Part shown: positions 16,556 to 56,320 of the stretch, in pieces | How the letters are laid out: each line of letters begins with the position of its first letter | Position numbering within the stretch: the stretch's first letter is position 1 | DNA from: a virus | IMG/VR virus record: IMGVR_UViG_3300031566_003932 | DNA length: 64,000 bases | Strand: one strand, 5' to 3' | Notes under the pieces: generated by a model | The model's database searches: none | What the model was told of the DNA's origin: nothing | What the model saw: only the letters and a program-made list of their open reading frames with translations | Program-made: the position numbers and the translations under genes

Positions 16556-16557
16556 TC

Positions 16558-32434: not shown

Positions 32435-32652
32435 GGCAGAAATTCTCTCCTATCAGTATCTTTCTCAAATATCCGCCGTGTTGTATCCTTATGAAATAGC
32501 CTGATATCTGTATCCTTTTCAAACACTCGCCTAGCTCCTTCAATCTCGATTGCCACGGCTGTATAGGTTCCATATTCCGGCCAAAAATCCTCGGCCCAGA
32601 AATTATCAGGCCAGAACTGCGAAGGCCAAAAGCCAGCGGGCAATAAGGCCAT
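32431..32652 (-). CDS. Small protein with FWP-like x4 and FxKDT x3 repeats
   Basis: Direct reading of translation. Confidence 0.55.
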   Translation of the reverse strand: MALLPAGFWPSQFWPDNFWAEDFWPEYGTYTAVAIEIEGARRVFEKDTDIRLFHKDTTRRIFEKDTDRREFLP

Positions 32653-34847
32653 TAGCTGCCATCCAATGTATTGACGGCGGTACGGTTGCCATCCGAATCC
32701 ACAGTTACAATTAACCGACTCTTTGTATCATCTATACTTCGGAAATGCAGAGTTGCGCTACCGCCCCCGCTCGTGATTCCGGTGAGCATGGCCATATCAA
32801 TCCGCTGTTTTTCAATAAACGGATATCCGCTTTCAATTTCCGTATAGAAAAGACTGCTTACCCGTACATCCGCCGAAGTTATGGCATTCATGACCGTTTG
32901 CGAAGTCGGAAGCGTAAGGATATGCGCGTTCAAATTTTGACTCGTCGGCAATGTAACAACATGAGCCTGTAACGTCAGACTTGACGGAAGTGTAGCGATC
33001 AGACTGGCCAATGCGCTGGAACTGGGTATAGATCCACTCGCCGGAAGTGTGCTGATTTGTGCTTCAAGTGTCTCGGACGTAGGCAAGGTAGCGATCAGAT
33101 CCGCTAAAGCACTGGAACTGGGCAAGCTGCCTGATAGCGGTAATGTCACAATATGAGCATTGAGCGTTTCAGACGTGGGCAAAGTCACCATGTGCGCTTT
33201 AAGTGTCAGACTTGTCGGTAAAGTAATGATATGAGCGTTCAAGGCCAAGCTTGTCGGCAAGGTACTGATTTGAGCCTGTAAGGTCAAAGAATTCGGAAGT
33301 GTGGCAATCAAGTCGGCAAGCGTGGAACTATTCGGCAATGAGCCGCTTATGGGTAATGTGACGATGTGCGCGTTTAGAGTTTCGCTAGTCGGAAGCGTGA
33401 CAGCATGTCCTTGCAACGTGAGACTAGTCGGGAGTGTCACAATGTGAGCATTCAAGGTCAAGCTCGTAGGCAGCGTATCAATATGCGCTTTCAAATTCTC
33501 TGAACTTGGTAGATAACCAAGGAACGCATCATAACAGGCCGATTGCACTTCACTTGCAGAGGCCCCGCCCCCGGCTACCCCCTCGCTGATACCTTGCAGG
33601 GAATCATCGGAACTGACGAAAGCCGACATATTGCCACCTGCCGCCATGAGTAAGGAAAGAACGCTGAAATCTGCTACTTCCGCCGTGAGATCCGAACTAT
33701 CCGCAACCACCGTTTTCATAAGGTGATTTAGATTGAAATCATCTACCACCTGAGCGCATGCGCTTTGTACTTCGGCTGTAGAGGCTCCCCCGCCTGCCGC
33801 ACCTTCAGCAATGGCTTGTAAAGCATCATCGCTGCTTACAAATGCGCTGACATCTCCCCCAGCCGCGATCATGAGGCCCAAAACGCTGAAATCCGCAACC
33901 TCAGTTGTCAAATCGCTACTGTCCGCCACAACCGTTTTCATTAGGTGATCGAGGTTGATATTAGAGAGGGCGACGCCTGCAATGATTCCGACCGCCTCAG
34001 AGTTGGGCAAGGTTATGATGTGAGCATTTACTGTTTCACTGGTTGGCAACGTGATAATATGTGCGTTTAGAGTCTCGCTGTTTGGCAAAAGTCCGATTTG
34101 CCCATTAAGCGTTTCAGAATTCGGAAGCGTATCGATCCATCCCTTGACAGTAAGGCTGTTCGGGAGATCGGCAACCATTCCGCTTGTAGGGCTTATCCCG
34201 AACCAGGCATCCACCTGCAGGCTGCTTGGCAAGTCAGCTACATGCCCAGAGAGCGGTAAAGTCAAAATGTGAGCATTTAGAACTTCACTACTTGGAAGCG
34301 TTAAGATATGAGCGTTGAGCGTTTCGCTATTCGGCAAATCTGCCACATGGCCCGAAAGTGGCAAAGTAACGATATGATCATTCAAGACGCTACTCGTGGG
34401 GAGCGTAATTATGTGCGCGTTGAGTGCTTCGGACGTTGCCAGGGTGAGAATATGAGCGTTGAGCGTTTCCGAATTTGGCAGAACACTGGCCAGAGCCCAG
34501 GGGTAATCATCATATTTGCTGTGCCAGAATGCCGAAGTGACCACCGCCACAGTGTCAAAATATGGGAGGCACTTACTGTCATCTTGAATAGCGATGCCCA
34601 TATCGCCATAAGTATCCATATTTGAGTTTGTGAGCGTGAGATTATAATGGCCATCCATGCTCTCGATTGCCGCCCAGCTATTCGCCGAGATACTTACAGG
34701 TGTCACATTTCCATATTTTCTAATGGCCTTTTCATCGGCCCCCGAAAGCGTCAAATCCGTTACCGGTGTCAGACCGTCTGAATTACTCACAATCGGCCCT
34801 ACTGGAAATGTAATTATAGTTTTGCCGATTAATTCTTTTTTGCTCAT
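32652..34847 (-). CDS. 731-aa Ser/Thr-rich repeat protein (putative virion fibre)
   Basis: About 30 units of LPxSxxLxAHIxT (with 6- and 9-aa variants) and two ~60-aa repeats. Confidence 0.8.
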   Translation of the reverse strand: MSKKELIGKTIITFPVGPIVSNSDGLTPVTDLTLSGADEKAIRKYGNVTPVSISANSWAAIESMDGHYNLTLTNSNMDTYGDMGIAIQDDSKCLPYFDTVAVVTSAFWHSKYDDYPWALASVLPNSETLNAHILTLATSEALNAHIITLPTSSVLNDHIVTLPLSGHVADLPNSETLNAHILTLPSSEVLNAHILTLPLSGHVADLPSSLQVDAWFGISPTSGMVADLPNSLTVKGWIDTLPNSETLNGQIGLLPNSETLNAHIITLPTSETVNAHIITLPNSEAVGIIAGVALSNINLDHLMKTVVADSSDLTTEVADFSVLGLMIAAGGDVSAFVSSDDALQAIAEGAAGGGASTAEVQSACAQVVDDFNLNHLMKTVVADSSDLTAEVADFSVLSLLMAAGGNMSAFVSSDDSLQGISEGVAGGGASASEVQSACYDAFLGYLPSSENLKAHIDTLPTSLTLNAHIVTLPTSLTLQGHAVTLPTSETLNAHIVTLPISGSLPNSSTLADLIATLPNSLTLQAQISTLPTSLALNAHIITLPTSLTLKAHMVTLPTSETLNAHIVTLPLSGSLPSSSALADLIATLPTSETLEAQISTLPASGSIPSSSALASLIATLPSSLTLQAHVVTLPTSQNLNAHILTLPTSQTVMNAITSADVRVSSLFYTEIESGYPFIEKQRIDMAMLTGITSGGGSATLHFRSIDDTKSRLIVTVDSDGNRTAVNTLDGS

Positions 34848-34848
34848 C

Positions 34849-36336
34849 TTAATTTCTCAATAATCTATTGTAATAAGCGATTCTAGGGAGTATGGAGATT
34901 TCTCCCCCCGCCGTCACAATCTCACTCGCCCCGATATACCAAGTTGAGCGTGTTTGCCCCTCTATATCATCCGTAAATGTACCGCTTAAATCCTCCCCAT
35001 CATCCACGATCGCCAAGTTTGTTACATCTCCATCAGAATCTAAGCGGTAATCGTCATTAGCATAATCCTTAAAAACTGAATTGGTATGGACGTCCTTGCT
35101 CTGATAGGCTTCATCGGGAGAAGTATCATCTTCAGAGATGTTGTAGGCATGAGTACCAAATCCTCCACCGGCATCGGAGTAATCCTCACCACCAGCGTCA
35201 GCTTGACAGAGGTTATTCTTGACTGTTAGTGTTCCAACAACCTCAGCCGTGAGTTCTCTAATATTATTATAATTGCCGATACAGGTATTGTTTAGAATAT
35301 ATTTATCTCCAGATGAATCGCCTGAAACTCCTAGTCCGTGGTAATTAGCGTTTGTAAATCCATAACAAATACAATTCCTTACATTTATATTCCTTGCTGC
35401 ACCGTGATGATCGATGCCCCAATTAGAACTAACATCCCCTTTGAGGAGGAGGCGATTCAAGGTCATTACGCCAGTATCAGCACCATCTCGCAACTGTACA
35501 CCAGAGTTATAGGATCCTGATATATCAAATGCTAGATTTGACACTTCAATATTGTCGAATTTTCCTGCAATGCTTTCTTTAAATTGGATTATATCCCAAG
35601 TACCCATATTTATTCTGGCTCCATTCCCATATGCCCCTCCATTATGTTCATCTCCACTCTGAGCTGTGAGTTTGAAAAGATAAGTAGCTGTATCAACATC
35701 AAAATATACTTCAGCGGTAGTACTTGTTTCTTCATTATTGTGTTCCCCTGTGAGATTGCCTGTCAATGGGCCGGTGCCTGGATCGATGATATCTGCTTCA
35801 AAGGCGTTGACTGTATCGTAGTTAAGACCAGAACCGATTGAGAATGTTCCTTCTGCAATCGTGCCCTTTGACAAAGTATAATCTGAAGGCAATCGTTGAC
35901 CTACATATTCATTCTTGATAATCTGATCAAAGGCTCGTTCTATATAAATTAAACCAGGATCTTTTTCCTTGTTGTAGATTGCATCAAACTGGCTTTTGGT
36001 AATAAGACCAAGATCAAGTAGTAACTTATAGTCAATGAACCAATCTCGCCGCCTGAGTCGTTTTTCATCAAGTCTTGCTGTGCGTTCCCAGGGATATTTC
36101 CCTTGAGAATCTACAGCCACAAGATATTTCTTGATGTTGTCATAGACCTTTTGACCAGGCCATTTCCAATTGGTAGAACCACGTAACTGCCAATAATCAC
36201 CTGGTAATGTGAGGACACAATGATGCTTCCTGGTGATACCACCATTATGAAATCCATCAGGGCGAATGTCGATTATCTGACCATCACGCCAATATCTGGG
36301 GTCTTGTGAACCACCAACTTTGAGTAGAAGTTCCAT
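34849..36336 (-). CDS. Virion protein with putative parallel beta-helix domain
   Basis: INVRNCICYG, ILNNTCIGN, VKNNLC stacks; DYRL and DDIEGQTR...IGASE tail. Confidence 0.6.
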   Translation of the reverse strand: MELLLKVGGSQDPRYWRDGQIIDIRPDGFHNGGITRKHHCVLTLPGDYWQLRGSTNWKWPGQKVYDNIKKYLVAVDSQGKYPWERTARLDEKRLRRRDWFIDYKLLLDLGLITKSQFDAIYNKEKDPGLIYIERAFDQIIKNEYVGQRLPSDYTLSKGTIAEGTFSIGSGLNYDTVNAFEADIIDPGTGPLTGNLTGEHNNEETSTTAEVYFDVDTATYLFKLTAQSGDEHNGGAYGNGARINMGTWDIIQFKESIAGKFDNIEVSNLAFDISGSYNSGVQLRDGADTGVMTLNRLLLKGDVSSNWGIDHHGAARNINVRNCICYGFTNANYHGLGVSGDSSGDKYILNNTCIGNYNNIRELTAEVVGTLTVKNNLCQADAGGEDYSDAGGGFGTHAYNISEDDTSPDEAYQSKDVHTNSVFKDYANDDYRLDSDGDVTNLAIVDDGEDLSGTFTDDIEGQTRSTWYIGASEIVTAGGEISILPRIAYYNRLLRN

Positions 36337-36359
36337 TTACTTCCTTATTGCATCAAGAA

Positions 36360-36689
36360 TCACTCCGAAGAAACACGGAGGCCGCTGTATGGGTCCGATT
36401 TTCCCTTGTACAAAGGGACGGCTAGATCAGACCAGACCTCCCCGTCGAAACTCGCCTTTGCGTTAAAGATTATTTTCGGCCCAGCTGGGTCAAATCCGGG
36501 TAAAGCGTGATAAACCGAACCATCAACAGCTGCATCTTCTACGGGTTGCTCTACCCCATTGATAATCACAATTACCTTTGTCACGCCAGGATTAGGGTCA
36601 CTGACCAGATAATATGTCTGGCCGAATGCCAGCACGGGCAGCAAAAGCGCCATGAGGCATATACCTATTAGAAAAGCTATTGTTTTCAT
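36360..36689 (-). CDS. Small secreted beta-rich protein
   Basis: MKTIAFLIGICLMALLLPVLAFG signal peptide. Confidence 0.6.
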   Translation of the reverse strand: MKTIAFLIGICLMALLLPVLAFGQTYYLVSDPNPGVTKVIVIINGVEQPVEDAAVDGSVYHALPGFDPAGPKIIFNAKASFDGEVWSDLAVPLYKGKSDPYSGLRVSSE

Positions 36690-36701
36690 ACTAGATACCT
36701 C

Positions 36702-39620
36702 CTAAAAGTATTTCTCCTGATAAATGTTTGTCTTGGCATCGATGAGTTTCGCTGTCAAAACCTTGATGTCTTCCTTATTCATAAACGTGCCGTCAAAGAT
36801 ATTCTCTACAATCCGGCCCTGATGCTCAAGGGAGGCCATGATACTCGAATTGACCCGGCCCCTTCCTGCCTCATCCAGATTCGGGGCAAGATTAGAGGCC
36901 AGATCCAGATAAGAAAACCTGATCCCCTGCCCGTTATTCAGAATCTTCACGGCCTCGCTGTAATACTGCATTCCGTCAATGCACATCCTGAGCTCATCCT
37001 TTACCAGTAGGTCGCGCCAGAGTTTCACGGCTTCTTGAGCGTATTGTTTGAGTTGTTCAGTGAATTGCCCGCCGTTGCCTTCCAGGGTGTATTTGATATG
37101 ATGGATAAGGTCACGCATCCAGAGAAAGCAACCGAGCCGCCGTTCTGGGTACTTCACCCGGTCCGCTTGCATAAGTGGCCAGTTGCGCTGAAACCGTGCC
37201 CGCCTGATCAGCTCCGTTGCATACCCCGTGTGCATAATAGCGATGTCATCCAGCACACAAATCTTGCTGATACCGCTATTCATTTTCTCTTCCGGATGCT
37301 CGTGAACCATGCCAAAGAACCGGATTCCCTTGTGATTGCGAAATATCCGGGCCGGGAGGTCCGTCTTGAACAGAGCTGCCGGTTCCGTTGCGTAATGATG
37401 CTGTCTGACCGAATATCCGTTATAACAATTCTGTCTCAAATGCTGTGGCAGGTTCCGGGCGTTTTCAAGAGTTTCGTCGCTATCAATCCATAAGATCCAA
37501 TCCATGACCGCTTTTTCGATTGTCCGGTTGCGGGCCTCGTCAAAACCTTGTTCAAGAGGCGACTTGATCTTGAAAGTCTGTGCTCCGAATTTCTTGGCCA
37601 CACGTTCGGTCTCATCGGTCGTGGTCTCATCAATGCCGATAATAATCTCATCGGCAATAGATTGAATCGTTTGCAGGGTCTTCCCGAGCGTATATTCAAC
37701 ATCCTTGGCAATCATACAGACTGAGAGTGTTTCCCGTGGTGCCTGGCTTATGAGTTTTCGCTTATAATTGATCTCGCCCGTGGGAAGACCCGAGCTCTGA
37801 AAGGTCAATAGCCAGTGACCGACATAGCCCTTAAAGGTGTAAAGGCTGGGTATGGCGATCAGCTTATAATCTCGCTGATTGCCCCATATCTCAAAAATGT
37901 CCTGCCGCTCGAAGTGGTGAATATGCGAACGCCATCCTTTTTCCTCTTCATATCCGAGAGCCTCCCATGCACCGGAGGGAACAGTAATAAGCATGTGACC
38001 GTTTGGCTCAAGATGCTGCATAAGCAAATCCGAAATCTCGGCCACATTTGGTATGTGTTCAAAAAGTTCTGAGGCAAGAATCATGTCGTATTTGCCTAAT
38101 TCCTGGTGCATTTCCTCAAGTTTTCCGCAAATGAATTTCACCCGACCTTGAGTATTGGCCTGTTTCTCCCAGGCGCGAGCCTTGTCAATATTCGACTGCA
38201 TGAAATCAAGGCCGGTGAATCTGGCTTCAGGCATCCTGCCGGCGAGATTCATCGTATAATGACCGTGAGCGCATCCGAAGTCGAGTACGTTTTTCGGCTT
38301 CAATTCCTGTATTTTCTGAAACATCTGCATAAATCGGCCATTACGTCCAAGATCCTCCGGGCCATAATGCACACCCTTTTTCTCTTCGTGGGCGTAATAC
38401 CGTGTGTAGTGGTCTTCATACTCACCGGAGAAATAGAAATAATAATTCTTTTTGAGATCGGGCCGGGTCTTTTCCGCTCCGTCCTTAACTGCCGCCACAA
38501 TATCGCTTTGCTCTTCAAGGTGCTTGTGTAAGCGATAGGTGTTTGCACTCCGTTCCCTGAGCATGTCTTCAAACTGCTTTTCCCATTCTGCCGCGATATC
38601 GGGCCACGCCTGCCGCTTTGCTTTGGCCTTTTTGTGTAGCCCTATCCATTTATGCAGGGCCGTTCTCACAGTCTTTGCAAAGAGCTTCTTATCGACCCCG
38701 CCGTCTTTGTCTAGATCAAGCAGGATCGCGCCCGCTTCATTCATCGTTTCCGGGAGGGCCGCCGTCTTGAAGGCAATAAACGGGGTCCCGCAGGCGTTAG
38801 CCTCAAGTGCTACCATGCAACTCGTATCTTCAAAGGTCGTGGGGTAGACATAAAGCATACACCGGGCCATGAGTTCGGCAAGTTGCCGTTTCCCGAGAGG
38901 CCCCACGTTTGTCACGTTCTTTCGGTCATCACAGCATTTCCAGAGATATTCATAATACTGCCTTAGCTGCGGGACTGTGTTATCATACCCGCAGACGTAT
39001 AAGTGACAATTAGGGAGCTCATCCATAATGCCTTTGTCGCCCACGAGATTTTCAAGACCCCGCTCCGGGCGCGAGGCATAGATGAGGGAATTCGGCTCAC
39101 GGTCGAAAAGTTCAAGTCCTTCATATTCCTGATAATCGATGCCGTTCTTTGTGGCCGTGATATATTCTTTTGGGATTCCATAAACATCCGAGACCTGCCG
39201 CTTGTGGAATTCCGAAACCGTGAAGACCTGATCAACATACATGAGTTGCGCTTGCACCATCATGCCATGGCGATGCAAAGCCAGATCATGCAACCACCAC
39301 ACATTGAGCTTACTGTTAATGATTTGCGTGAATGAATGCCAGTGACGCTGTGCAATCACTACATCATAGGGTGCTCTCATGACGTAATGGAAGCGATCAC
39401 CAAGAGGCATATTTTCTCTTGGAGTGCCTAAAAACTCGTAGGTCACGCCATCCCATTTGCCGCATTGCTGCTCATTTGTAAAAACGATTACACTATGGCC
39501 GCGCTTTACGAGTTCGCGGGCCATGTAATACCCGGCGCTTTCCGATCCTCCGAGACTTTTACCGTCTGGAATGGTTGCGCCGTTAAATGGCATGCCGGGA
39601 ATTGCCATTGCGATGTGCAT
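36702..39620 (-). CDS. Tri-domain GT4 + SAM methyltransferase + GT2 fusion
   Basis: GT-B: GGSESA, YASRPERGL, FEDTSCMVALEA; MTase: VLDFGCAHG, SELFEHI; GT-A: SVCMIAKD, WIDSDE, VHE, HTGY. Confidence 0.88.
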   Translation of the reverse strand: MHIAMAIPGMPFNGATIPDGKSLGGSESAGYYMARELVKRGHSVIVFTNEQQCGKWDGVTYEFLGTPRENMPLGDRFHYVMRAPYDVVIAQRHWHSFTQIINSKLNVWWLHDLALHRHGMMVQAQLMYVDQVFTVSEFHKRQVSDVYGIPKEYITATKNGIDYQEYEGLELFDREPNSLIYASRPERGLENLVGDKGIMDELPNCHLYVCGYDNTVPQLRQYYEYLWKCCDDRKNVTNVGPLGKRQLAELMARCMLYVYPTTFEDTSCMVALEANACGTPFIAFKTAALPETMNEAGAILLDLDKDGGVDKKLFAKTVRTALHKWIGLHKKAKAKRQAWPDIAAEWEKQFEDMLRERSANTYRLHKHLEEQSDIVAAVKDGAEKTRPDLKKNYYFYFSGEYEDHYTRYYAHEEKKGVHYGPEDLGRNGRFMQMFQKIQELKPKNVLDFGCAHGHYTMNLAGRMPEARFTGLDFMQSNIDKARAWEKQANTQGRVKFICGKLEEMHQELGKYDMILASELFEHIPNVAEISDLLMQHLEPNGHMLITVPSGAWEALGYEEEKGWRSHIHHFERQDIFEIWGNQRDYKLIAIPSLYTFKGYVGHWLLTFQSSGLPTGEINYKRKLISQAPRETLSVCMIAKDVEYTLGKTLQTIQSIADEIIIGIDETTTDETERVAKKFGAQTFKIKSPLEQGFDEARNRTIEKAVMDWILWIDSDETLENARNLPQHLRQNCYNGYSVRQHHYATEPAALFKTDLPARIFRNHKGIRFFGMVHEHPEEKMNSGISKICVLDDIAIMHTGYATELIRRARFQRNWPLMQADRVKYPERRLGCFLWMRDLIHHIKYTLEGNGGQFTEQLKQYAQEAVKLWRDLLVKDELRMCIDGMQYYSEAVKILNNGQGIRFSYLDLASNLAPNLDEAGRGRVNSSIMASLEHQGRIVENIFDGTFMNKEDIKVLTAKLIDAKTNIYQEKYF

Positions 39621-39634
39621 ACAGTCCTCCTCTC

Positions 39635-39913
39635 TTAGATGCTGTCGATTTGCAATTTGCTTCTTATCAATCCGATAAGGGCATCTTTGTTGATGTATTT
39701 GGGCGGTAATTCAATGCCCATTGCCTCTGCCTGTTTTTTCAATTCCTTGTAAGTTAAATCCTTAAGGTCAATCCTGGTCTCTACCCCTTCGCCCTCGTCC
39801 GCCGTATCAAAGACTTGATCGGGCCGGGGCAAGTCTGCTTCGGTCAAACCCCGTTTGAAATCGTCTTCCGTGGGCTTCATGAGACCTTGTCTGATTGCGT
39901 CATCTCGTAACAT
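39635..39913 (-). CDS. Small protein with Rho-N/HeH-like C-terminus
   Basis: DLTYKELKKQAEAMGI...KDALIGLI. Confidence 0.6.
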   Translation of the reverse strand: MLRDDAIRQGLMKPTEDDFKRGLTEADLPRPDQVFDTADEGEGVETRIDLKDLTYKELKKQAEAMGIELPPKYINKDALIGLIRSKLQIDSI

Positions 39914-39931
39914 GATTTTCCTCTTTTGGAA

Positions 39932-39949
39932 GGGGGCCCGGAGGCCCCC
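39932..39949 (-). terminator. GC hairpin after the capsid gene (weak terminator or stabiliser)
   Basis: GGGGCC-CGGA-GGCCCC; poor U tract. Confidence 0.35.
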
Positions 39950-39963
39950 GATCCGGTTAAAGG

Positions 39964-40944
39964 TTACACACTGGTTACATGAGTCATGAGAAAGGCGAGA
40001 TTCTTGGCCGTAATCTTCTCATCCTGGTAGTAACCAAGCTCGATTTCCTCGCTCTTGGTCTTCGGGTCAAACGGATGCCGTTCTGCGATCATGTTCGGCA
40101 AGCCCGGTTTGGTCCATCTGAAGGAGTACATAAAACTAGGTTCCTCAATGCTCGGGCTGGCCGGTGCATAATAAAACAAGACATGATCACCCCAGAGCGG
40201 GCTTAATGATGCGGTTTGACCTTCCTGCGTGGTGCTGTAGTAGGCCCTTCCGACATGGAACGCATCAAGCTCGAAAATTCGCTTGAACTGCTCCACACTG
40301 GCATATCTGACACCCACTTCACCAGGTGCCCCGGCATAACCGTATATGATTGAGATCACGTCGGCATGCTGCCTGAAATTCCGCCATGCCAGCTCGCTCA
40401 TAATGCAGCGGTTTGGCCTGTATCCTGTTGAATCCTGGACGTTAGCGACTGCCTGCCAGCAATCGGCCAACGGAGTGCTATAACCGGTTCTGTGCTCTAT
40501 CCAGTCAGACGTGATAGTGGCATAAGAGCCACAATTGCTTCCACTGGTGCACCTTAGAGCTACCCGTTGCTCCCAGGACAACATGAGTTTGCTTTTGATG
40601 AATTTTGTCCGGCCTTCCCGCATGTTACCGATGAAAACCGGGTCCATATTTTCGCGATCCTCAAGATTCAAGGGCATTTTGAGAGCGTAATTCTTCGCGT
40701 TATAGCTTTCAGATGAGACACTTCGCTCGATCTTGTTCGCTTCATCTCCTGGTGCCCTCTTGTCATCCTCAATCCTGAAAGCGTCCGCATGACTCCAAAT
40801 GATGTAAGTATCGCTTTGTTTTCCCACCGAAACGATGGGGGCAATAACATCGGCAATCATGCCTTTAGGTTCGTAATTGATCGCCACATTCGACAAATGC
40901 TGATCAATATGCAGGTCGTGACCTGTTGCTCCTCCTCCTGCCAT
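39964..40944 (-). CDS. Major capsid protein
   Basis: 326 aa after decoration genes; HIDQHLSNVAINY, IAPIVSVGKQSDTY. Confidence 0.85.
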   Translation of the reverse strand: MAGGGATGHDLHIDQHLSNVAINYEPKGMIADVIAPIVSVGKQSDTYIIWSHADAFRIEDDKRAPGDEANKIERSVSSESYNAKNYALKMPLNLEDRENMDPVFIGNMREGRTKFIKSKLMLSWEQRVALRCTSGSNCGSYATITSDWIEHRTGYSTPLADCWQAVANVQDSTGYRPNRCIMSELAWRNFRQHADVISIIYGYAGAPGEVGVRYASVEQFKRIFELDAFHVGRAYYSTTQEGQTASLSPLWGDHVLFYYAPASPSIEEPSFMYSFRWTKPGLPNMIAERHPFDPKTKSEEIELGYYQDEKITAKNLAFLMTHVTSV

Positions 40945-40962
40945 TTTCGTTCACCTCCTAGC

Positions 40963-41343
40963 TTATAATGAGTCCACGCTTTGATACATGGGCGCTGCAA
41001 AGTTAAAGAATCCTGTTCCGATACTGCCACTGGTTGCGGCTGTTGCCCCCCCCCGGCCTATCGTGTAATAACCGCTGGCAGCGGTTACGAAATACCCCGA
41101 GGTCGTGACCCTGAGCTTGTTACCGACACCGATCGCAAGCCCGGCACGATACTTGAATTCTCCGATTACCCCATAATCAACGTGCTCATTGTTTTTGGCT
41201 TTGTTAAGAATGATTCCACCGGCCTCATGAGAGCTATTCGCTATCTGGCCATCATCCAGGGCGATAGCGAAATACTGGTGAGTATCAAGAGCTTCACCGG
41301 CTTTGATTGTACTTGTAACTGCAAGTTGTCCTTGTACTGCCAT
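40963..41343 (-). CDS. Capsid decoration/cement protein (DUF2190-like)
   Basis: Gly/Ala-rich; VTTSGYF; between protease and capsid. Confidence 0.7.
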   Translation of the reverse strand: MAVQGQLAVTSTIKAGEALDTHQYFAIALDDGQIANSSHEAGGIILNKAKNNEHVDYGVIGEFKYRAGLAIGVGNKLRVTTSGYFVTAASGYYTIGRGGATAATSGSIGTGFFNFAAPMYQSVDSL

Positions 41344-41356
41344 AAAACTTCACCTC

Positions 41357-42076
41357 CTACATTGATGTAACAGCGCCTATGATCCCGCCGAGAAATATGG
41401 CTGCTCCGACGTCGGCACTTCCGATATTTTCCAATGCTCGGGCTACGCTATAATCACCGGAAGCGACTGGAGTGAAATAACCGGAAGTTGTCACAGTCAA
41501 ATTATCGCCATAGGTACACACTACTGCTGGACCCAGTCGCACCTCCATGACACCGGCTATGCCAAAATTCCGAGCAGTCCCGGCGACTGCCGCGCCTAAA
41601 GCCACGGCATTGGCCTCTATGCCAAGATCGGCCTGTTCGTGATCATTCAAAGCCATGGCCGTCCCTGCAATCATGGCAACACTTGACGTCATTGAATAGA
41701 TCCAAATATTTGACTTGTCTGATCCAGTCGGAATGTTAAAAAGCCCTGTTCCCAGTGACCCGGAGGTCACGGTGGCTTTGGCTTCTCCTAAAATCGGATC
41801 GTTGCTATCGGCGGTTGTAAACCAGCCGGAAGTTGTTACTGTTAGCTTTGCGCCCTTTGAGATTGCCAGCCCGGCGGCAAACTTCAATTCGCCTATATAC
41901 CCGAGCGACAGGAATTCCCCGCTCTTGGGTTTATTCAGCAAAATGCCGCTTGTTTCCTCGCCGTTATTGGCGAGCAATCCGTCAACTAGGGCGATAGCGT
42001 GATACTGAAAAGCAGACGTGTTCAAGTCTTCTTTGGCCTGTATTGTCGTGCTAAATCGCACATTCTGAGTGGCCAT
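41357..42076 (-). CDS. Tandem double DUF2190-like decoration protein
   Basis: Two internal copies, each with VTTSG[WY]F; similar to 40963-41343. Confidence 0.7.
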   Translation of the reverse strand: MATQNVRFSTTIQAKEDLNTSAFQYHAIALVDGLLANNGEETSGILLNKPKSGEFLSLGYIGELKFAAGLAISKGAKLTVTTSGWFTTADSNDPILGEAKATVTSGSLGTGLFNIPTGSDKSNIWIYSMTSSVAMIAGTAMALNDHEQADLGIEANAVALGAAVAGTARNFGIAGVMEVRLGPAVVCTYGDNLTVTTSGYFTPVASGDYSVARALENIGSADVGAAIFLGGIIGAVTSM

Positions 42077-42104
42077 GTACTATCACCTCCTATATATGAC
42101 CTTC

Positions 42105-43607
42105 TTACAGGTCTTCGTAAGCATATCGTTTGGCAAGATCCGCATCGCCTTCAAGCACGGCCTTGGAAGCCTCGGCGTAGTTCACGTCCTTATGATCGGC
42201 CATGTACTTCTTGGTCTTGGCCGTGAGTTCCTCGCCTACGGTCTTGTATTCCTTCTGCTCATCGCCAGTGCCTTCCTTGCCCTTTTCGGTGATATCAAAC
42301 ACCTTGGCATGAGTTTCAAAGCACTTCTTGAAGGCATCGAAGGTGATCGAGAAACCATGATCATCCGTATAAACGTGCTTCTCCAAGTCGTTGACCAGGA
42401 TATCGCGGGCCGCGGGTGTCATCTTGCCGTCTTTGACCATCTGCTCGCAGAACGTCTTGATTTCATCCGTCCGGGCCGTTTTCAGACCATCGGCTTTCTC
42501 TTTCTTCAAAGCCTCGGCCTCGGCCTTGTAGGTCTTGCTCTCGCCTTCCGATTTTGTTAAATCGGCTTTTGCCGCATTCAGCTCATCAGTGAGCTGCTTA
42601 ATCTTTTCATCAGACATTTCTTCAACCTCCTCGTCTGTTTTAATTTCCCCGCTTTCATTGACTTCAAAGCTATAACTGGCCATTTTCTCAAACGTCCCGA
42701 CTTCGGGAGTCATGGACAGATAGGCTTCCAGGTCTGCAAGATTACTGACGGCGGGGATATCTGCGCCTAGTAAACCGACGGCGGAAAGTACCCGTTTGAA
42801 TACCTTGCCGCTCTCTTTCAAATTCCAGTAAATCTCGGCGCTCACCCTCTTGTAACGTCCAGAGGTGATCGCCTTATAAAGTACGTCAGGCACCTGAGTC
42901 ACAGTGGCGATAAGTTTTTCACCGACTTTCTTGAGGCCCTTCACCCAGCCAAGGGCGGGCTGGCCATCTTCCAGGTGCATTTTATTGTCATGTGCAAGTT
43001 TCAGGGGCGGTTTGATTTTCTCCTGCAGCTCATAGAAAGCATGAACCATTTCGTTCAAGTCGCCCTCGGTGTATGCGTCTCCGTTCCAGATTCCGGTGCT
43101 GAAAACCTCGACATCGAACTCGTGGGTCTTTTCCTCAGTGGCATGGCTCCTGTTCCCTGCCTGCGTTTTCCTGTCTACCCACTGGCAATTTTTGGGTTCA
43201 TAATTGCCATCGTTATTTGTCCGGTCGATTGTGTAACCGTCCGGTCGCGGCCCCATATCTTTCATAAAATCGTCAAAACTATCCTGCCAGCGTTGGCATA
43301 CGGAAACCCCGCGGCCTCCGTATCTTGCATAATCCTTGTCATTGCTATTGACACAGCGTGACTTCATGGAAGTCCAGACCGAATAGTCTTGCTCTCTCGA
43401 CATGGCCGCCGTTTTGCTCCATTTACCCTCTGCGTCCTTGGTCCATCCCGCGTTTTTCACGGCTCCCCAGCCGATCTTCGCCGCCATCTCGTCATCTCCG
43501 GGGGTCTTGCCTAGAGAACTATTCGCAGCATTGCGCCAGATTTCTTGTGCGCTCGCGGGAAGCACTTTCACTCCATCGGGCAAACTTTCTAATGTTGGGT
43601 ACGGCAT
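42105..43607 (-). CDS. Head maturation protease/scaffold (Mu gpI-like) with N-terminal ChaB-like domain and in-frame HNH domain
   Basis: AAKIGWGAVK ChaB; YGGRGVSVCQRW...IDRTNNDGNYEPKNC HNH; LKLAHD, PALGW, YKRVSAE, LLGADIPAV protease; helical scaffold tail. Confidence 0.85.
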   Translation of the reverse strand: MPYPTLESLPDGVKVLPASAQEIWRNAANSSLGKTPGDDEMAAKIGWGAVKNAGWTKDAEGKWSKTAAMSREQDYSVWTSMKSRCVNSNDKDYARYGGRGVSVCQRWQDSFDDFMKDMGPRPDGYTIDRTNNDGNYEPKNCQWVDRKTQAGNRSHATEEKTHEFDVEVFSTGIWNGDAYTEGDLNEMVHAFYELQEKIKPPLKLAHDNKMHLEDGQPALGWVKGLKKVGEKLIATVTQVPDVLYKAITSGRYKRVSAEIYWNLKESGKVFKRVLSAVGLLGADIPAVSNLADLEAYLSMTPEVGTFEKMASYSFEVNESGEIKTDEEVEEMSDEKIKQLTDELNAAKADLTKSEGESKTYKAEAEALKKEKADGLKTARTDEIKTFCEQMVKDGKMTPAARDILVNDLEKHVYTDDHGFSITFDAFKKCFETHAKVFDITEKGKEGTGDEQKEYKTVGEELTAKTKKYMADHKDVNYAEASKAVLEGDADLAKRYAYEDL

Positions 43608-43631
43608 TTTCCTTGTCCTCCATCGGCCAAC

Positions 43632-43674
43632 AAAAAAGGGAGCAATCTAGTGGTTCTGGCACCAGACTGCCCCC
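43632..43674 (-). terminator. Intrinsic terminator-like hairpin before the protease gene
   Basis: GGGGGCAGTCTGGTG / CACTAGATTGCTCCC (15 bp with G-U pairs) then T6. Confidence 0.6.
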
Positions 43675-43734
43675 TAAAATGTTCTGCTCTAAGATTCGCG
43701 GGTCCTAGAGTGGCCTTACTTTATTTAACGTGAA

Positions 43735-44445
43735 TCATCCATTTATCACCTTGATTATCTGCATATTCTCAGGCACTATTTGATGACATTTATGGCAAAG
43801 TTCATAAGGCTCAAGTCTGAATTTCGTAATATCATCAAAGATATTCCCGAGCATGCCTTTCTTTGCTGCATCCAAGCAGCACGTAGTTATGTCACCATTG
43901 CTATAAACCATGACCTGGCCTCTCTCAAGCCAGGGGCAGGCGTATTTGACAGGACTTTCAAACCAATCGACTTGACCGGCCCAATTATTTGGGAGTGTCA
44001 CCGGGTCAATTGTAAGTCGCCCAGCGATACCGAGCTTTCGAAATATCTCAATCGTTCTTGCCGTTACGCGAGGGTCGCCATGATAGGTGATATCGATTGC
44101 GGTAATTCCTGCATTCTGCAAGTTCCGGGCAAGTTCCTCAGTCATCAACTTTCCATTAGTGTTTGCGTGTATGATCTGCCGTATAGGTAGCTTATTACGA
44201 GCATGCTTGACCATCTCTGCAAGATCGGGGTTTAACGTAGGCTCACCTATGCCAAATAGGTTTAACTCGCGCTGTGTGCCCTGTTTGCAGAAGTGGGCCA
44301 CCCATTCGATAGCCTTCTCAAAGACCTTCATGCTCATCAAGCCCACTTCCCGGAACTTCTTTTGAAAAGGAGCCGGGCAGTAGGGGCATGTATTGTTACA
44401 GAGGCTTGAAACCTCGATGCTATTTATGGTTGTTATCGGCTGCAT
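43735..44445 (-). CDS. Radical SAM protein with twitch/SPASM-type domain (paralog 2)
   Basis: CNNTCPYC, GIGE, TNG, NWAGQ, C..CC..CxxC. Confidence 0.9.
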   Translation of the reverse strand: MQPITTINSIEVSSLCNNTCPYCPAPFQKKFREVGLMSMKVFEKAIEWVAHFCKQGTQRELNLFGIGEPTLNPDLAEMVKHARNKLPIRQIIHANTNGKLMTEELARNLQNAGITAIDITYHGDPRVTARTIEIFRKLGIAGRLTIDPVTLPNNWAGQVDWFESPVKYACPWLERGQVMVYSNGDITTCCLDAAKKGMLGNIFDDITKFRLEPYELCHKCHQIVPENMQIIKVING

Positions 44446-45076
44446 ATCTAACCAATTTCTCCCTCAATGGATGTGTCAATCTGTCCTCCGGTATCACGAC
44501 TAAAATCGGGCCTGTAAGCAAAAGCTCATCAGGTGCCACAAAAACTAAATCATCCGTATATTTTTCAAAAACCTTGAGCCATTGTTCTGGGGTCTTCATG
44601 TTGATATGTGAGGGATCGGTCCCTTTGTCCAGGCATAGCGTGTGCGCCTGTATACGTCCGACTCGAAAGCATTCATTCAACACATCGTCAAGTATCGATT
44701 CATCGATGTGCTCAAGCAATGCCGAGGAGAACACCAGGTCGAATTCTTTATCCTTGTAGGGCATGTTCTGAACGCTGCCCTGCCTGAGATTAGGCAATCC
44801 ACTATGAAAGACTGCTATCTGGCTTATCTCGATTCCATGGACATTTTTAAAACCCCTGCTTTCCCATACCCTCATGGCATGGCCCACGCCCGAGCCAAGG
44901 TCTAAGATCTTGGCCGAAAGAGGAAGGCCGGTATACATCAGAATGCGGTTGATATAATACGCCTTGGCTTCGTTGGCCCATTCGGGCATGGGACTATTGA
45001 TATACTGGTGCCGATACCAGCCCTTGAGATATTCCTGATCATACCAGGACCCGTCTATGAATTTTTGATTATCCAT
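44420..45076 (-). CDS. Class I methyltransferase (copy 2)
   Basis: Same as 50-706. Confidence 0.85.
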   Translation of the reverse strand: MDNQKFIDGSWYDQEYLKGWYRHQYINSPMPEWANEAKAYYINRILMYTGLPLSAKILDLGSGVGHAMRVWESRGFKNVHGIEISQIAVFHSGLPNLRQGSVQNMPYKDKEFDLVFSSALLEHIDESILDDVLNECFRVGRIQAHTLCLDKGTDPSHINMKTPEQWLKVFEKYTDDLVFVAPDELLLTGPILVVIPEDRLTHPLREKLVRYAADNNHK

Positions 45077-45830
45077 TAGCTGCCTTAAATATCTTCCACC
45101 CGGTGAAATTCCTATTATATCCCTGCATTCCGCCCTCTGTTTCACCCCGGAAAGTAAAATCGAATCCGCAGTCTTTGAGAAAAGATTTCAGGATTACATT
45201 TGCCGTGTTTTGATCCGGATATCCGTATTGAGCAAATTGATCATCACTAAAAAAGCCGGGTGCGGGCGCGTGTGTCTCCAGGTCCATAAACTTGACCCGC
45301 GTTAACGAATCTTTCAGGCTATCCCTCGGGCTGAAAATCTCGTATTCGCCACCCTCGATATCTACCTTGAGAACGTCAATAGTATCGAACAAAGATAGAA
45401 GATGCTCAAAGCCTATGGTCTGGGTAAAGCCTGCATTGATATGCTCATTAGGATCAAAGAAAGTTCCGTATTGCCCGTGGTTGCTCCGGGAACTTGACCA
45501 GAATATGTTACGAGCCTCACCCGTTTTCAATGCCGCGGCCGCCCACATGGGCGTAATGACATGGCCAAAATGATTATTATATGTGTTCTTTACCAAAGTT
45601 CTGAAATTCTCAAAGAAGGCCTCGATTGCCAGGATTCGGTTAAAGCCCTTTTCTGCTGCAAAATATAAGGTACTGCAACCGATATGAGCGCCTATTTCAA
45701 GCATAGTATCATGGGAACCGTTGAAATCTTCCATGTATCTCACACCCTCATCCAGAATCCACTGGTCGCAGTCTTGCAGTTCCATCGTGACATCACGGCT
45801 TTTGATGTGCGGGTGTGCTATGTTAAGCAT
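45069..45830 (-). CDS. FkbM-family methyltransferase (copy 2)
   Basis: Same as 699-1460. Confidence 0.85.
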   Translation of the reverse strand: MLNIAHPHIKSRDVTMELQDCDQWILDEGVRYMEDFNGSHDTMLEIGAHIGCSTLYFAAEKGFNRILAIEAFFENFRTLVKNTYNNHFGHVITPMWAAAALKTGEARNIFWSSSRSNHGQYGTFFDPNEHINAGFTQTIGFEHLLSLFDTIDVLKVDIEGGEYEIFSPRDSLKDSLTRVKFMDLETHAPAPGFFSDDQFAQYGYPDQNTANVILKSFLKDCGFDFTFRGETEGGMQGYNRNFTGWKIFKAANG

Positions 45831-46587
45831 ACATCCTCACGAGGTCCTGGTCAGTAGGTTGATTCTCCATTTCAAACTGCGCCATAAGATCGGCGGATAT
45901 CTCTTGATGACAAGTCCGACAAAGAGCATAAGGCCGGATAGGGCGACTAAGGATATCCCCATCAAACACATTGCCAAAAACGCCGAGATTACGATAGTCA
46001 AAGCAGCAAGGCGTAATATTACCCTCAGTGAGTACATATCCTCTCCCCTCTATAAGTGGGTCGCATCGACCCTTGAGCATGCAGTCAACCTGATTCTCAG
46101 GCTCAAGCTGCCCTGCCCAATTGTGCGTATAGATAATAGGGCCATTATTGAGCACCCCCGGAATTCCGACCTTTAGCATGATCTGAGCTGCCTTACGCGC
46201 ATGGGCGGGCGAATGCGGGGAAAGGTCAAGCTGATCCATGCCCGCATCCTTGAGGCCCTTGCAGACCTCATAAGTCATATTTACGCCGTTAGTACACATG
46301 CAGACGCGCCGATCGCCCATGATTTCCTTGGTGCGCTTCACCCGTTTAACGAGTTGTGGATCGAGAAACGCTTCGCCATCCCCGTTCATATTGACTTCCA
46401 TCTGTGTGCCACGGTTGCAAAGCTCCTGTAAAAGCTCAAGGGTCTTGTCAAATACCCGGTCTGACATGATGCCGGGTTTCCTTGCAGGGTCTTTCACGAG
46501 CAGGCGGTTAATGCAATATTGACATTGCAAATTGCAAATGTTAGAAAGCTCAATAGTCGTTATGGTCTTGAGGGTAATCATCCCCAC
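45823..46587 (-). CDS. Radical SAM paralog 1 (copy 2)
   Basis: Same as 1453-2217. Confidence 0.9.
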   Translation of the reverse strand: MGMITLKTITTIELSNICNLQCQYCINRLLVKDPARKPGIMSDRVFDKTLELLQELCNRGTQMEVNMNGDGEAFLDPQLVKRVKRTKEIMGDRRVCMCTNGVNMTYEVCKGLKDAGMDQLDLSPHSPAHARKAAQIMLKVGIPGVLNNGPIIYTHNWAGQLEPENQVDCMLKGRCDPLIEGRGYVLTEGNITPCCFDYRNLGVFGNVFDGDILSRPIRPYALCRTCHQEISADLMAQFEMENQPTDQDLVRMYA

Positions 46588-47201
46588 CTCATAAGGCCCT
46601 TATCGTCTAAAATTTCATCGTTCAACAGATTGATGAAATGATGACAATCTGTGCAGTAAACATGATATATGCTTTGCACCCGTAAATATTTTTTGCCATA
46701 CATATTTTCAGGATATCCAGCCGTAACCCAATTTTTATGCTCACATTTTTCCATAAAGGAGACCTCCCATGGGACACCTAATATTTTGCATCTTGCATAT
46801 TATAGCGATTTTATTCGGTTTCATCCTGCTGTTCATAACCGTTCCACTTCATATCATTTACGCTTGCGTACACAGAAAAAGAAAGTTAGCTTAAATATCG
46901 CTAGTAAGCCAATCATCGAGAAAAGGCTTCAATCCCTTTTGTATATCCAGATATAGACTTAAAGCGGAATTCCGTTCTATTTCTAATTTATTCGGATCTG
47001 ATGCAACTTTTTTAGCAAAAATCAAAGCTCGAAATTCTCCATTATCCTTTGTATCAAATTCAAACTGTCTTGTGCATTTATGGCAAAGTCGAGCAGGGTA
47101 AACGTCAAAAAGCATTCTATCTATTGCGTCCTCTGCCCCGCATTTCTCACAAGAAATGAAAACGCCATATTTCTTAGTGATCGAAATATTGATAAAGGCC
47201 A

Positions 47202-49424
47202 TCACGCAAACCCCTTCTGAGGCTCAAGCCTCGGTTTTGCGCTCTCCTTGCCATTCCATTCATCAACTATCGTGACCGGTATCAGGAGTGCGCGGCATTG
47301 AAAGTGATTCGGAGGCGTGTAACTGCCCCAGTCCTTCAAGATCCGCCCGTTGAGATGTTCGCAAATATCCGATGTCCGCTCATCCAATACCGCACTGTAT
47401 TCATAGGCCAGCACAAAGCCTCTAAATTCCGGTTGCCCGAAAAGCGCCTGCCGTGCCTGGTTAAGCGCGTCAGACGTATTTGTTCGGGCAATATTCTCTA
47501 ACCTGGCCGGGACGTTAATCGCCTTACCCCCCGCATCGACTTCCGGCAGCATCTGCAAGAGCGTTGTTTCCTCGCCTATGGCCTTGATGGTCTGAGGTAA
47601 GGTCTTGTCGTACTTGACGGCATTCTCAAGCACATTTTGAACGCCTTTCAAGGTATCTTGCTCCATCACGCCGGCAATCGTGAAAGCCTTGGATGCAAGA
47701 AATTTCTCAACCTGCGTCTTATCCATGCCGGGGCGAATGGTCTTGGCCTGCACCTTCTTAGGCAATTCACGGCGGGCGAATTCATAACCATTCTCAAGCA
47801 CGGTAGTCAGATTCTTTCGTATATTGCGCCTGAGATTGCCCATGATTGCCTTGCTTATTCCGATTCCGAGTAGTTCCTTGAGCTTTACATTACCGAGAGA
47901 CCGCTGACCCACGATATTGATAATCTGCTTTTCTATGGATATCCGGACCTCTGCCATGCTCTGCTTGAGGTCGTCAACAAACTTGCCGTCTTGATCATCC
48001 AGGGTGCCTTTGATCGCGGTGAAATCTACTCGTTTGAGCCATGGCTTTTCGGCAAATTCCTTTCTGATAAGATCCTGCTTTTCCTTGGGTTGCGCGGAGA
48101 TCCAGTTTTCTATTTCCTCATCTGAGGGTGGTTCCTCACCGGGCAGGCCCTCTACAGGTATTTCCTCCTCTGGTTCCTCTTCCTCTGCCTTCTCAGGAAA
48201 TCCCATACTCTGCCTGATATGGGCCTCGTCAGTATCGCTCTTTGTTACTGCCCCTTTGCTGACGAGTTCAGCCCATTGTTTCGCTATCTCCGCTTTCTGC
48301 GTGTCGGAGATAGGCTCAAATCGAAACCAGGGGAAATCCTCTGTGCCAAAATTCCATATCGCAAGTTGTCTGAAAAGCTGCTCGTTCAAGGTTTCTTCAA
48401 GGCGCGTGGCGATGATATCCAGAATCCAGAAGAAAGATTCGAGTTGTGTCTGTGATTGGCTGTAACTGCCGGTCTTTCCTTCTTCCGATAATCCCAGGAG
48501 ATTCGGGACTAGGATTGATCGCCCGATAGCACGGTTATGCAGCCCTATGGCCTTTTCAAAGGCATCGGTTCTGACAGGTTGGAAAAGATTGAGTTTTATA
48601 TGATCAGGTACATGGGCAGCCATCTTTACTGAAATATTATTGATGAGATCTTCAAGATGTTCCTTGTCTCCTGGTTGCAATGATCCGTGTTGCGCCCAAA
48701 TAAACCCGCTGGCATGCCGCTCAAGGAAGATATTGTAAAACCGGATCGTAATATCTTTCGACCACCAGGAGCGATAGCAGGCCCTCAGATCTGATTCGCC
48801 GTATATGCGATTGACGTCCGGTTGATGTACAAAATGAATGATCTTGGTAAGGGGTATCTCATTCCGGGCCCCCCCCACAACTTGGCTGATTTTCTCGATA
48901 TTGCCATGCTCATCGAGTTGAAAGCCGCCGTTGAAAGTTTCGGCCGGCCTGAGCTTGAGATCCTTCAAGCCCCAGTATGTCTTGCTGTCATAGGTGATTG
49001 GTTGAAAGACTTTCTCGATTACAGAATAACCATTTTGGAAGGCAGAAAGTATCTCGATCAACTTGTCCGAGAAGCTGCCCCGGATCTGTTTGATTGCAAA
49101 GCCGAAGAAATCGGCCATCTCTTCATGCTCTTTGCGGGGCTCCCCATTATCATCCGTTTCAATATCGAAGTACCAGTCACGGCTTAGGACAGCATTCATT
49201 TTGAATTGCAGGGTGGGCTTGATCTGATCGTCTTTGACCATATTGCTGTAGATCTCATTCCCCTTGGTGATCTTGAGCGTATCGGGATCATAGTCATGAA
49301 ACGTACCGAGGCCATAAAGACTGGTTCTCGCTATACCAATTTCACCGGCTTTGGGGGTGCCTGCTTCTTTCTCAAGAAGATCGGGTTTCTTGAATGCTTG
49401 TAATGCTGCGCTAAGTCTGCTCAT
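47202..49424 (-). CDS. Portal-MuF fusion (copy 2)
   Basis: Same as 2832-5054. Confidence 0.85.
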   Translation of the reverse strand: MSRLSAALQAFKKPDLLEKEAGTPKAGEIGIARTSLYGLGTFHDYDPDTLKITKGNEIYSNMVKDDQIKPTLQFKMNAVLSRDWYFDIETDDNGEPRKEHEEMADFFGFAIKQIRGSFSDKLIEILSAFQNGYSVIEKVFQPITYDSKTYWGLKDLKLRPAETFNGGFQLDEHGNIEKISQVVGGARNEIPLTKIIHFVHQPDVNRIYGESDLRACYRSWWSKDITIRFYNIFLERHASGFIWAQHGSLQPGDKEHLEDLINNISVKMAAHVPDHIKLNLFQPVRTDAFEKAIGLHNRAIGRSILVPNLLGLSEEGKTGSYSQSQTQLESFFWILDIIATRLEETLNEQLFRQLAIWNFGTEDFPWFRFEPISDTQKAEIAKQWAELVSKGAVTKSDTDEAHIRQSMGFPEKAEEEEPEEEIPVEGLPGEEPPSDEEIENWISAQPKEKQDLIRKEFAEKPWLKRVDFTAIKGTLDDQDGKFVDDLKQSMAEVRISIEKQIINIVGQRSLGNVKLKELLGIGISKAIMGNLRRNIRKNLTTVLENGYEFARRELPKKVQAKTIRPGMDKTQVEKFLASKAFTIAGVMEQDTLKGVQNVLENAVKYDKTLPQTIKAIGEETTLLQMLPEVDAGGKAINVPARLENIARTNTSDALNQARQALFGQPEFRGFVLAYEYSAVLDERTSDICEHLNGRILKDWGSYTPPNHFQCRALLIPVTIVDEWNGKESAKPRLEPQKGFA

Positions 49425-52981: not shown

Positions 52982-52989
52982 GTTAATCT

Positions 52990-53400: not shown

Positions 53401-53403
53401 GAA

Positions 53404-56175: not shown

Positions 56176-56320
56176 CTAACCCGCCTTTTCTTAAACCACC
56201 TATAAACACGGGCCCACGGCGAATCTATACGCCAGACTCCATATCTCTTGAGGTATTCCTTTTGCTCCCGGCGTAAAGACTTGCCGCCATCATAAGGTCG
56301 GGGTTTGTTGATTATGATGC

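Follow-up and report, generated by a model that had tools for sequence, protein, structure and literature searches.

The 64,000-nt window analysed here, which is the whole stretch of IMG/VR virus record IMGVR_UViG_3300031566_003932, encodes a set of glycosyltransferase and tailoring enzymes among the head genes of a phage. The central member is a fusion protein encoded shortly after the gene for the major capsid protein (MCP), in which a family 4 glycosyltransferase (GT4), a methyltransferase (MT) and a family 2 glycosyltransferase (GT2) are joined. Two radical S-adenosylmethionine (SAM) enzymes, rSAM1 and rSAM2, an FkbM-family methyltransferase and a separate class I methyltransferase accompany it. 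We interpret the set as a system in which the core fusion glycosylates a conserved virion protein, methyl and radical tailoring being an optional addition in this phage, and give this reading a probability of roughly 0.55. An earlier note on this DNA had proposed a glycosylation and glycan-tailoring system built into the head operon, and this stays the best reading. The domain tally of that note (two radical SAM, three methyltransferase and two glycosyltransferase domains) is correct. Its picture of one fixed system is not: only the fusion is core, and the radical SAM, FkbM and class I methyltransferase genes are optional.

From the N-terminus to the C-terminus, the fusion consists of a retaining GT4 domain of GT-B fold (residues 1–358), a helical linker, a class I methyltransferase domain (approximately 428–610), a SunS/ThuS/GmaR-like GT2 domain (approximately 625–800) and a helical domain (803–972). 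The GT4 domain finds MshA, GlgM, sucrose-phosphate synthase and methylmannose-polysaccharide mannosyltransferase in a fold search with Z scores of ~31 over residues 1–358. In its motifs, residues G24, G25, S26, E27, E264 and E273 do not vary and D265 hardly does. Between the two glycosyltransferase domains lies a class I SAM methyltransferase of generic type. A profile of the fusion family, built from 31 homologues with 43–82% identity, matches the solved structures of GmaR (4e-26), SunS (7e-21) and ThuS (4e-19), and the next GT2 follows at 9e-8. The GGSE motif, the D/E-x7-E motif, the glycines of methyltransferase motif I and the DxD motif at D713/D715 are kept in these 31 homologues. The AlphaFold2 (AF2) model of the fusion has a predicted local distance difference test (pLDDT) score of 88.8 and a predicted template modelling (pTM) score of 0.86. 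In Foldseek, ThuS and SunS rank top for this model with 280–400 columns aligned. The C-terminal helices at 803–972 are modelled as well, and the full-length alignment with ThuS and SunS extends over 339–400 columns, but with a root-mean-square deviation of 8.5–17 Å.

SunS and ThuS are glycocin S-glycosyltransferases. Together with GmaR they are the closest solved relatives of the fusion GT2; in all three a helical domain comes after a GT-A domain that carries a DxD motif, and they put the sugar straight onto a polypeptide. The identity with them in structural alignments is only 17–21%. Unlike these enzymes, the GT2 here is the C-terminal part of a tri-domain protein, with no leader-peptide or MogR-binding context. 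Judged from these relatives, the GT2 domain appears to be of the protein- or peptide-priming type, which fits the earlier proposal that GT2 primes and GT4 extends.

The fusion is closely linked to the capsid gene across relatives. An MCP-anchored search of IMG/VR gave 80 loci with MCP identity of 45–85%, and the fusion lies 0.1–2.2 kb 3' of the MCP gene in 50 of the 50 loci that have at least 3.5 kb of downstream sequence. This order persists down to 31% MCP identity. It is also observed in contigs of metagenome-assembled genomes binned as Desulfobacterales, Desulfocapsa, Zixibacteria, Flavobacteriaceae and Pseudomonadota. A wider protein search finds more than 400 full-length fusion homologues, many of them on contigs of 36–48 kb. 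We conclude that the fusion gene belongs to the core of the head module in a large uncultured clade. The linkage to head modules in related phages, whose absence would by the earlier note have refuted its proposal, is observed for it. In the minimal relatives (L021, L008 and L020) the order is portal, rSAM1, rSAM2, protease, cement protein, MCP, fusion and a Mu gp36 homologue, the last two adjoining directly with no gene between. The FkbM and class I methyltransferases are present in some relatives only, and the accessory open reading frames (ORFs) of the distant relatives L035, L036, L039, L041 and L043 give almost no Pfam matches. Among the cultured phages of the phage collection, none carries the fusion and none carries the radical SAM enzymes, and the closest cultured MCP relatives (≤28% identity) lack the fusion. 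A tblastn search of the fusion against 50,697 phage records at 1e-5 gives no mycobacteriophage match. The earlier statement that no described phage system combines these enzymes thus agrees with the cultured phages of the collection.

We propose that the fusion would be made late, along with the capsid proteins, as a soluble cytoplasmic enzyme. Its GT2 domain would attach the first sugar straight to a conserved virion protein, at a Ser, Thr or Cys residue, the retaining GT4 domain would add the second sugar, and the internal class I methyltransferase domain would methylate the glycan. The two radical SAM enzymes, the FkbM enzyme and the class I methyltransferase, whose genes fill another slot flanked by the portal and protease genes, would then tailor this glycan. 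The radical SAM enzymes would probably oxidise a sugar hydroxyl or rearrange it in another way, acting on the nucleotide-sugar donor or on the glycan once attached. The donor sugars would come from the host; the earlier note had reported no nucleotide-sugar synthesis gene, and likewise none is found among the window ORFs scanned. The identities and folds of the domains, their closest solved relatives, the synteny and the co-occurrence are observed; which protein accepts the sugar, which sugar it is, in what order the steps occur and what chemistry the radical SAM enzymes perform is what we infer in this scheme.

rSAM1 and rSAM2 are paralogues with 35% identity and ~240–250 aa each. The CxxxCxxC motif of the SAM-binding [4Fe-4S] cluster (C16/C20/C23) is invariant in 26 sequences including both paralogues. 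The auxiliary cysteines C170, C189/C190, C217 and C220 are invariant as well, and the first two align with cysteines of BtrN. The Pfam SPASM match to the radical SAM enzymes is partial. BtrN (PDB 4M7T) is the 2-deoxy-scyllo-inosamine dehydrogenase of butirosin biosynthesis. Single-sequence matches to it reach 4.5e-8 (rSAM2) and 1e-4, rSAM1 aligns with it over the full length, and the radical SAM profile matches it at 1.3e-15 over positions 5–208, the sole full-length match to a solved structure. The AF2 model of rSAM2 (pLDDT 92.3) finds BtrN in Foldseek with an E-value of 3e-14 and TM scores of 0.70/0.67 over 213 columns. The next matches (viperin-like and MoaA) are at 8e-7, seven orders weaker, and cover the core only. 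The likeness of these twitch radical SAM enzymes to BtrN, which had been suspected earlier, is thus borne out by sequence, profile and fold. Like BtrN, the phage enzymes have ~240–250 aa, the CxxxCxxC motif and a four-Cys twitch auxiliary cluster. Unlike BtrN, to which the identity is 24%, they are two paralogues encoded in one head operon and carry an invariant motif of their own, NNWAGQV(D)W; their function is putative.

Radical SAM genes are present in 15 of the 37 loci that can be assessed on both sides, 12 times as a pair. Among 69 distinct viral loci bearing a radical SAM gene, 40 hold the fusion, and the other 29 are nearly all contigs that end too early for the fusion to be seen. The position of the radical SAM genes varies among these 40 loci: between portal and protease in 22, between MCP and fusion in 4, after the fusion in 9, and adjoining the fusion in a locus without the MCP gene in 5. 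Since they occur almost always with the fusion and in three different slots around it, we regard the radical SAM enzymes as optional additions whose presence depends on the fusion. When 1.8 billion representative proteins are searched by profile, ~100 close clusters result; the contexts of intermediate homologues are mostly short contigs. One of the proteins found, P0381 (600 aa), joins a GT2 domain and a short radical SAM/SPASM domain of this type (7e-23). Its gene (loci L120–L123) belongs to a polysaccharide cluster with an acetyltransferase gene, GT2, GT1 and three GT8 genes and an ABC-2 exporter. This fusion suggests, as independent support, that the short radical SAM type works with glycosyltransferases, and also that it acts on glycans in bacteria. 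Separately, a 630-aa homologue of the phage radical SAM enzyme (P0259) is interrupted by a LAGLIDADG domain, with its match split in two stretches, which looks like an intein or a homing-endonuclease insertion.

A different role for the radical SAM enzymes would be maturation of a protein, in the manner of enzymes acting on ribosomally synthesised and post-translationally modified peptides (RiPPs). They would cross-link, epimerise or oxidise the capsid or Cys-rich ORF products, and GT2 would glycosylate the product. Many radical SAM/SPASM maturases are indeed among the weak NCBIfam matches, SunS and ThuS are themselves RiPP enzymes, and two small Cys-rich ORFs lie directly upstream of rSAM1. 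However, the NCBIfam matches to RiPP maturases are far below their cut-offs and cover the N-terminal core only, while BtrN is the sole full-length match in both sequence and fold. A length of ~240 aa leaves no space for a peptide-recognition domain, and the same radical SAM type is fused to GT2 in the polysaccharide cluster described above. No conserved Cys is found in the MCP and the small Cys-rich ORFs are not conserved with the radical SAM pair; thioether-type cross-linking of the MCP and the small ORFs as radical SAM substrates were rejected on these grounds. We regard a RiPP-like role as improbable.

The enzymes may also have no joint function, and be independent morons with separate targets that have entered two hot spots of the head operon. 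The radical SAM, FkbM and class I methyltransferase genes are each dispensable in some relatives, and an HNH-like segment, a Dam fragment, a helix-turn-helix (HTH) protein, and lectin-like and beta-helix proteins are found in the two slots too. Independent insertion is nevertheless not what the gene associations suggest: hardly any radical SAM gene is found without the fusion and these genes move with it to other contexts, neighbouring genes overlap or abut in a manner that suggests translational coupling, and the three domains of the fusion stay joined and catalytically intact in more than 400 homologues. A collection of unrelated morons has, in our estimate, little probability.

If a virion protein is glycosylated by the fusion, the acceptor would have to be conserved in the clade, which leaves the MCP, the cement proteins, the portal, the protease or a tail protein. 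Of these candidates, we rank the MCP and the cement proteins first. The MCP has a Ser/Thr-rich loop, VTSGSN(V/C)GS at residues 132–140, that is kept even at 31% identity, and cultured MCP relatives without the fusion (RDJL Phi 1, Bise and Ottawa) have an indel-rich loop there instead. This loop is a weak lead as candidate acceptor.

Several observations weigh against glycosylation of a virion protein. The loop at 132–140 is just the fourth most conserved segment among 68 MCPs. In the L159–L163 lineage (G001 and G002, including a 97%-complete 90-kb phage), radical SAM and fusion genes stand together around locus position 10000–14200 amid SSB, UvsX-like, SbcD and SbcC genes; an MCP of the present family is not found in this lineage. 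In G003 the radical SAM gene adjoins a DNA polymerase gene, with the fusion still beside the MCP gene. In L035 the fusion is alone beside a CI-like S24 repressor gene, with no head genes nearby. These contexts keep alive the possibilities of a host-directed and of a DNA-modifying role. The portal–protease junction also receives an HNH-like segment, a Dam-like fragment (L013) and an HTH protein, so position alone is a weak tie of the radical SAM genes to the head; that they depend on the fusion argues more strongly for such a tie. Finally, all of the evidence is sequence from uncultured phages, known from their genes alone.

A host-directed role would mean that the enzymes glycosylate a host protein or envelope part, such as flagellin, pilin, S-layer or a receptor, and not the virion. 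This would lead to lysogenic conversion, to superinfection exclusion or to receptor masking on cell debris. This role agrees with the L035 context, with the presence of the fusion in the 90-kb lineage without this MCP family, and with the adjacent cargo, which consists of a secreted protein and glycan-binding folds. The phage is temperate, since it encodes a tyrosine integrase. GmaR, the closest solved GT2, is the Listeria flagellin O-GlcNAc transferase (PMC9638930, PMC3150276). Against a host target, the fusion follows the MCP gene in all 50 assessable relatives, within a tightly packed late operon, and a scan of the region shows no enrichment of promoter-like sites. The fusion, the radical SAM enzymes and the methyltransferases are soluble, none having transmembrane (TM) segments. 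The export, carrier-lipid, flippase and polymerase functions are not encoded: no flippase, polymerase or lipid-carrier genes are found among the window ORFs scanned. We consider a host target unlikely.

Modification of the phage DNA itself, with bases glycosylated or methylated before or during packaging, would place the enzymes in a hypermodification pathway. Radical SAM enzymes occur in thymidine hypermodification pathways. The genomic neighbourhoods that would suit such a role are those of the L159–L163 pair among SSB, UvsX-like and SbcCD genes and of a radical SAM gene (L175) that adjoins a DNA polymerase gene, together with the Dam-like fragment in the L013 tailoring slot. However, no thymidylate-synthase-like hydroxymethylase is found among the window ORFs scanned, and PF00303 is absent from G001–G003, among them the 97%-complete 90-kb phage; hence the acceptor to which sugars are usually attached on DNA is lacking. 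The fusion GT2 is related to enzymes of the protein or peptide type, and in the main clade the genes are part of the head region and distant from the RecT/integrase early region. DNA hypermodification is, on this balance, very improbable.

Glycosylation of a virion protein can be compared with known viral systems. To our knowledge, virion glycosylation has been demonstrated for phages in few actinobacteriophages only, where it alters antibody recognition. Glycosyltransferases (GTs) of cluster F1 (Che8, Rita) and cluster O actinobacteriophages modify capsid and tail-tube proteins, and in cluster O phages an O-methyltransferase joins them in virion glycosylation (Freeman et al. 2023, as cited in PMC11256854 and PMC11600133). 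The combination of GT and methyltransferase genes is similar here; the modification takes place in the cytoplasm in those phages and gives the virion a glycan coat, and such a coat is predicted here. Unlike those systems, the present one has three domains in one protein, directly after the MCP gene in a Mu-like head module, adds radical SAM enzymes, and probably belongs to a Desulfobacterales-type host. No mycobacteriophage record holds a sequence relative of the fusion or of the radical SAM enzymes, and the present system is an analogue of the actinobacteriophage systems and not a member. The other similar case is A064R of chlorovirus PBCV-1, which has two GT domains and one MT domain, extends the MCP glycan and methylates its terminal sugar (PMC7826918). 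Both are viral three-domain enzymes with two glycosyltransferase domains and one methyltransferase domain. However, the order is GT–GT–MT in A064R and GT4–MT–GT2 in the fusion, and the likeness is one of domain content. A064R also belongs to a virus of eukaryotes, acts on N-linked glycans and has no radical SAM partner. Among uncultured phages, podovirus MW202524.1 (L044, 1–12222) has several GT and methyltransferase genes directly after its major capsid gene. These are separate genes in another capsid lineage, and the BtrN-like radical SAM enzymes are absent there. Multi-domain GT/MT proteins are common among the predicted viral structures of uncultured Caudovirales.

In hundreds of environmental phages the fusion is as tightly tied to the capsid gene as the protease/scaffold genes are. 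This wide linkage suggests that glycan-coated capsids are far commoner than assumed. A broader and more tentative version of the proposal, which we hold possible and somewhat short of an even chance, is that capsid glycosylation via the fusion is obligatory for assembly in the Mu-like-head clade, and that a sub-clade adds radical SAM chemistry on the glycan or its donor, with FkbM, class I methyltransferase or sulfotransferase partners. The system would be small and complete in itself, made up of a single core gene and a few tailoring genes. With the BtrN-like radical SAM pair it would gain a kind of sugar chemistry that no virus is known to have; if this is true, the coat would carry a sugar not made by the host and would be the first virus coat tailored by radical SAM enzymes.

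The cargo genes downstream of the fusion are variable. The 109-aa, beta-helix and LPxS-repeat proteins are absent from most relatives, and the N-terminus alone of the 109-aa protein is common to relatives. The beta-helix protein has no Pfam match; its Atlas structure resembles Pel9A/PL6/NosD-like helices with TM scores of 0.5–0.58, and from this modelled fold it is probably glycan-binding or glycan-cleaving. In other relatives the same slot holds Lcl_C, other beta-helix or LamG lectin-like proteins, so that it looks like a variable cassette for adhesins or appendages. The last protein had been described as a Ser/Thr repeat protein; it is a repeat protein, with LPxS as the repeat. It matches viral hypothetical proteins alone in the Atlas search and is probably a fibre or whisker-like appendage. 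The earlier note proposed to look for its co-occurrence with the enzymes across phage contigs, and in most relatives this is not seen. The protein was rejected as the conserved acceptor because, like the other two cargo proteins, it is absent from most of the relatives that keep the fusion and the radical SAM pair; it could at most be an extra, lineage-specific acceptor and would not account for the existence of the system. Other relatives have further enzymes in the two slots. A sulfotransferase gene (PF13469) lies between portal and rSAM1 (L011:3181–3780), with a homologous ORF in L018. Directly 3' of the fusion, L018 (12838–15629) encodes a FabG-like short-chain dehydrogenase/reductase (SDR), an acyl carrier protein and two proteins of unknown function, a cassette that suggests acylation of the same product. 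The sulfotransferase and the SDR/acyl carrier pair are typical glycan-tailoring functions.

The window contains a circular genome of ~44,370 bp written out 1.44 times. Positions 1–19630 are identical to 44371–64000, and features below 19630 occur twice. The genome is that of a siphovirus-like phage encoding, besides the integrase, RecT, a tape-measure protein and a Mu-type head module, and its host is probably a Desulfobacterales-type bacterium. The features of the late operon are summarized in the table below. Its gene order, as given in the earlier note, agrees with the ORF, Pfam and PHROG annotation; only some labels change. The 'decoration' protein is cement-like as supposed and is actually two paralogous proteins. 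The 'Rho-N-like' label finds no support in Pfam, and the PHROG match is weak.

Table. Features of the head operon and its tailoring and cargo genes, in order of transcription, in window coordinates.
Feature	Position	Strand	Evidence
Portal fused to MuF-like head morphogenesis domain	47202..49424	-	PF06074 3e-46, PF04233 2e-10
104-aa protein, CxxC...CxxC zinc-ribbon-like pattern	46891..47205	-	sequence
58-aa Cys/His-rich ORF	46578..46754	-	sequence
rSAM1, BtrN-like twitch radical SAM, ~250 aa	45823..46587	-	PF04055 2e-14
FkbM-family SAM methyltransferase	45069..45830	-	PF05050 4e-11, TIGR01444 2e-12 (above cut-off)
Class I SAM methyltransferase	44420..45145	-	PF08241 1e-13
rSAM2, BtrN-like twitch radical SAM	43735..44445	-	PF04055 2e-13, SPASM 3e-4
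16-bp stem-loop (8 GC pairs), then T run	43637..43675	-	rSAM2-protease gap
ChaB domain, HNH-like segment, Mu gpI-like head protease/scaffold	42105..43607	-	PF06150, phrog_976 8e-37, phrog_3377 2e-36
239-aa tandem cement-like (decoration) protein	41357..42076	-	phrog_673 4e-11; PF09956 weak
126-aa cement-like paralogue	40963..41343	-	phrog_673 1e-7
Major capsid protein (MCP), Mu gpT / lambda E-like family	39964..40944	-	phrog_1005 3e-56
92-aa acidic protein, helix-extension-helix-like C-terminus	39635..39913	-	sequence
GT4-MT-GT2 fusion, 972 aa	36702..39620	-	GT4, class I MT, GT2 Pfam 1e-10 to 8e-17
109-aa protein, N-terminal signal or TM segment	36360..36689	-	hydropathy 2.84 at residues 4-22
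495-aa right-handed beta-helix protein	34849..36336	-	Atlas structure matches
731-aa protein, 29 LPxS motifs, mostly 13-residue period	32652..34847	-	sequence

The genes of this minus-strand operon overlap or abut and are tightly packed. The portal-MuF gene forms the upstream border of the tailoring slot. The 104-aa CxxC ORF is variable and present in few close relatives only, and the 58-aa Cys/His-rich ORF has no homologue in the gene maps of relatives. The likely start of rSAM1 is the ATG at 46581. That of the class I methyltransferase is the ATG at 45076, just 3' of the FkbM stop codon; its matches in relatives begin near residue 20–30. The one sizeable gap of the operon, 127 nt, is between rSAM2 and the protease gene. 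The stem-loop in it is possibly an attenuator or an RNA-processing site, and terminator-like sites across the region are no commoner than in shuffled sequence. In the protease/scaffold protein, the ChaB and HNH-nuclease-like segment (residues 1–160) is fused in frame, and the N-terminal 140–160 residues are missing from many relatives. The 239-aa cement-like protein is kept across the clade. In many loci a small ORF of 45–120 aa holds the gap between MCP and fusion, and these ORFs fall in two main sequence families. Head-tail joining genes follow 3' of the cargo genes, including Mu gp36-like and tail-S-like genes. A near-identity DNA search against phages gives no match for the window. In the early region, a DUF5131 protein (phage Gp37/Gp68 family, 9e-87) is encoded on the plus strand at 20886–21722 and is followed by an HNH endonuclease gene.

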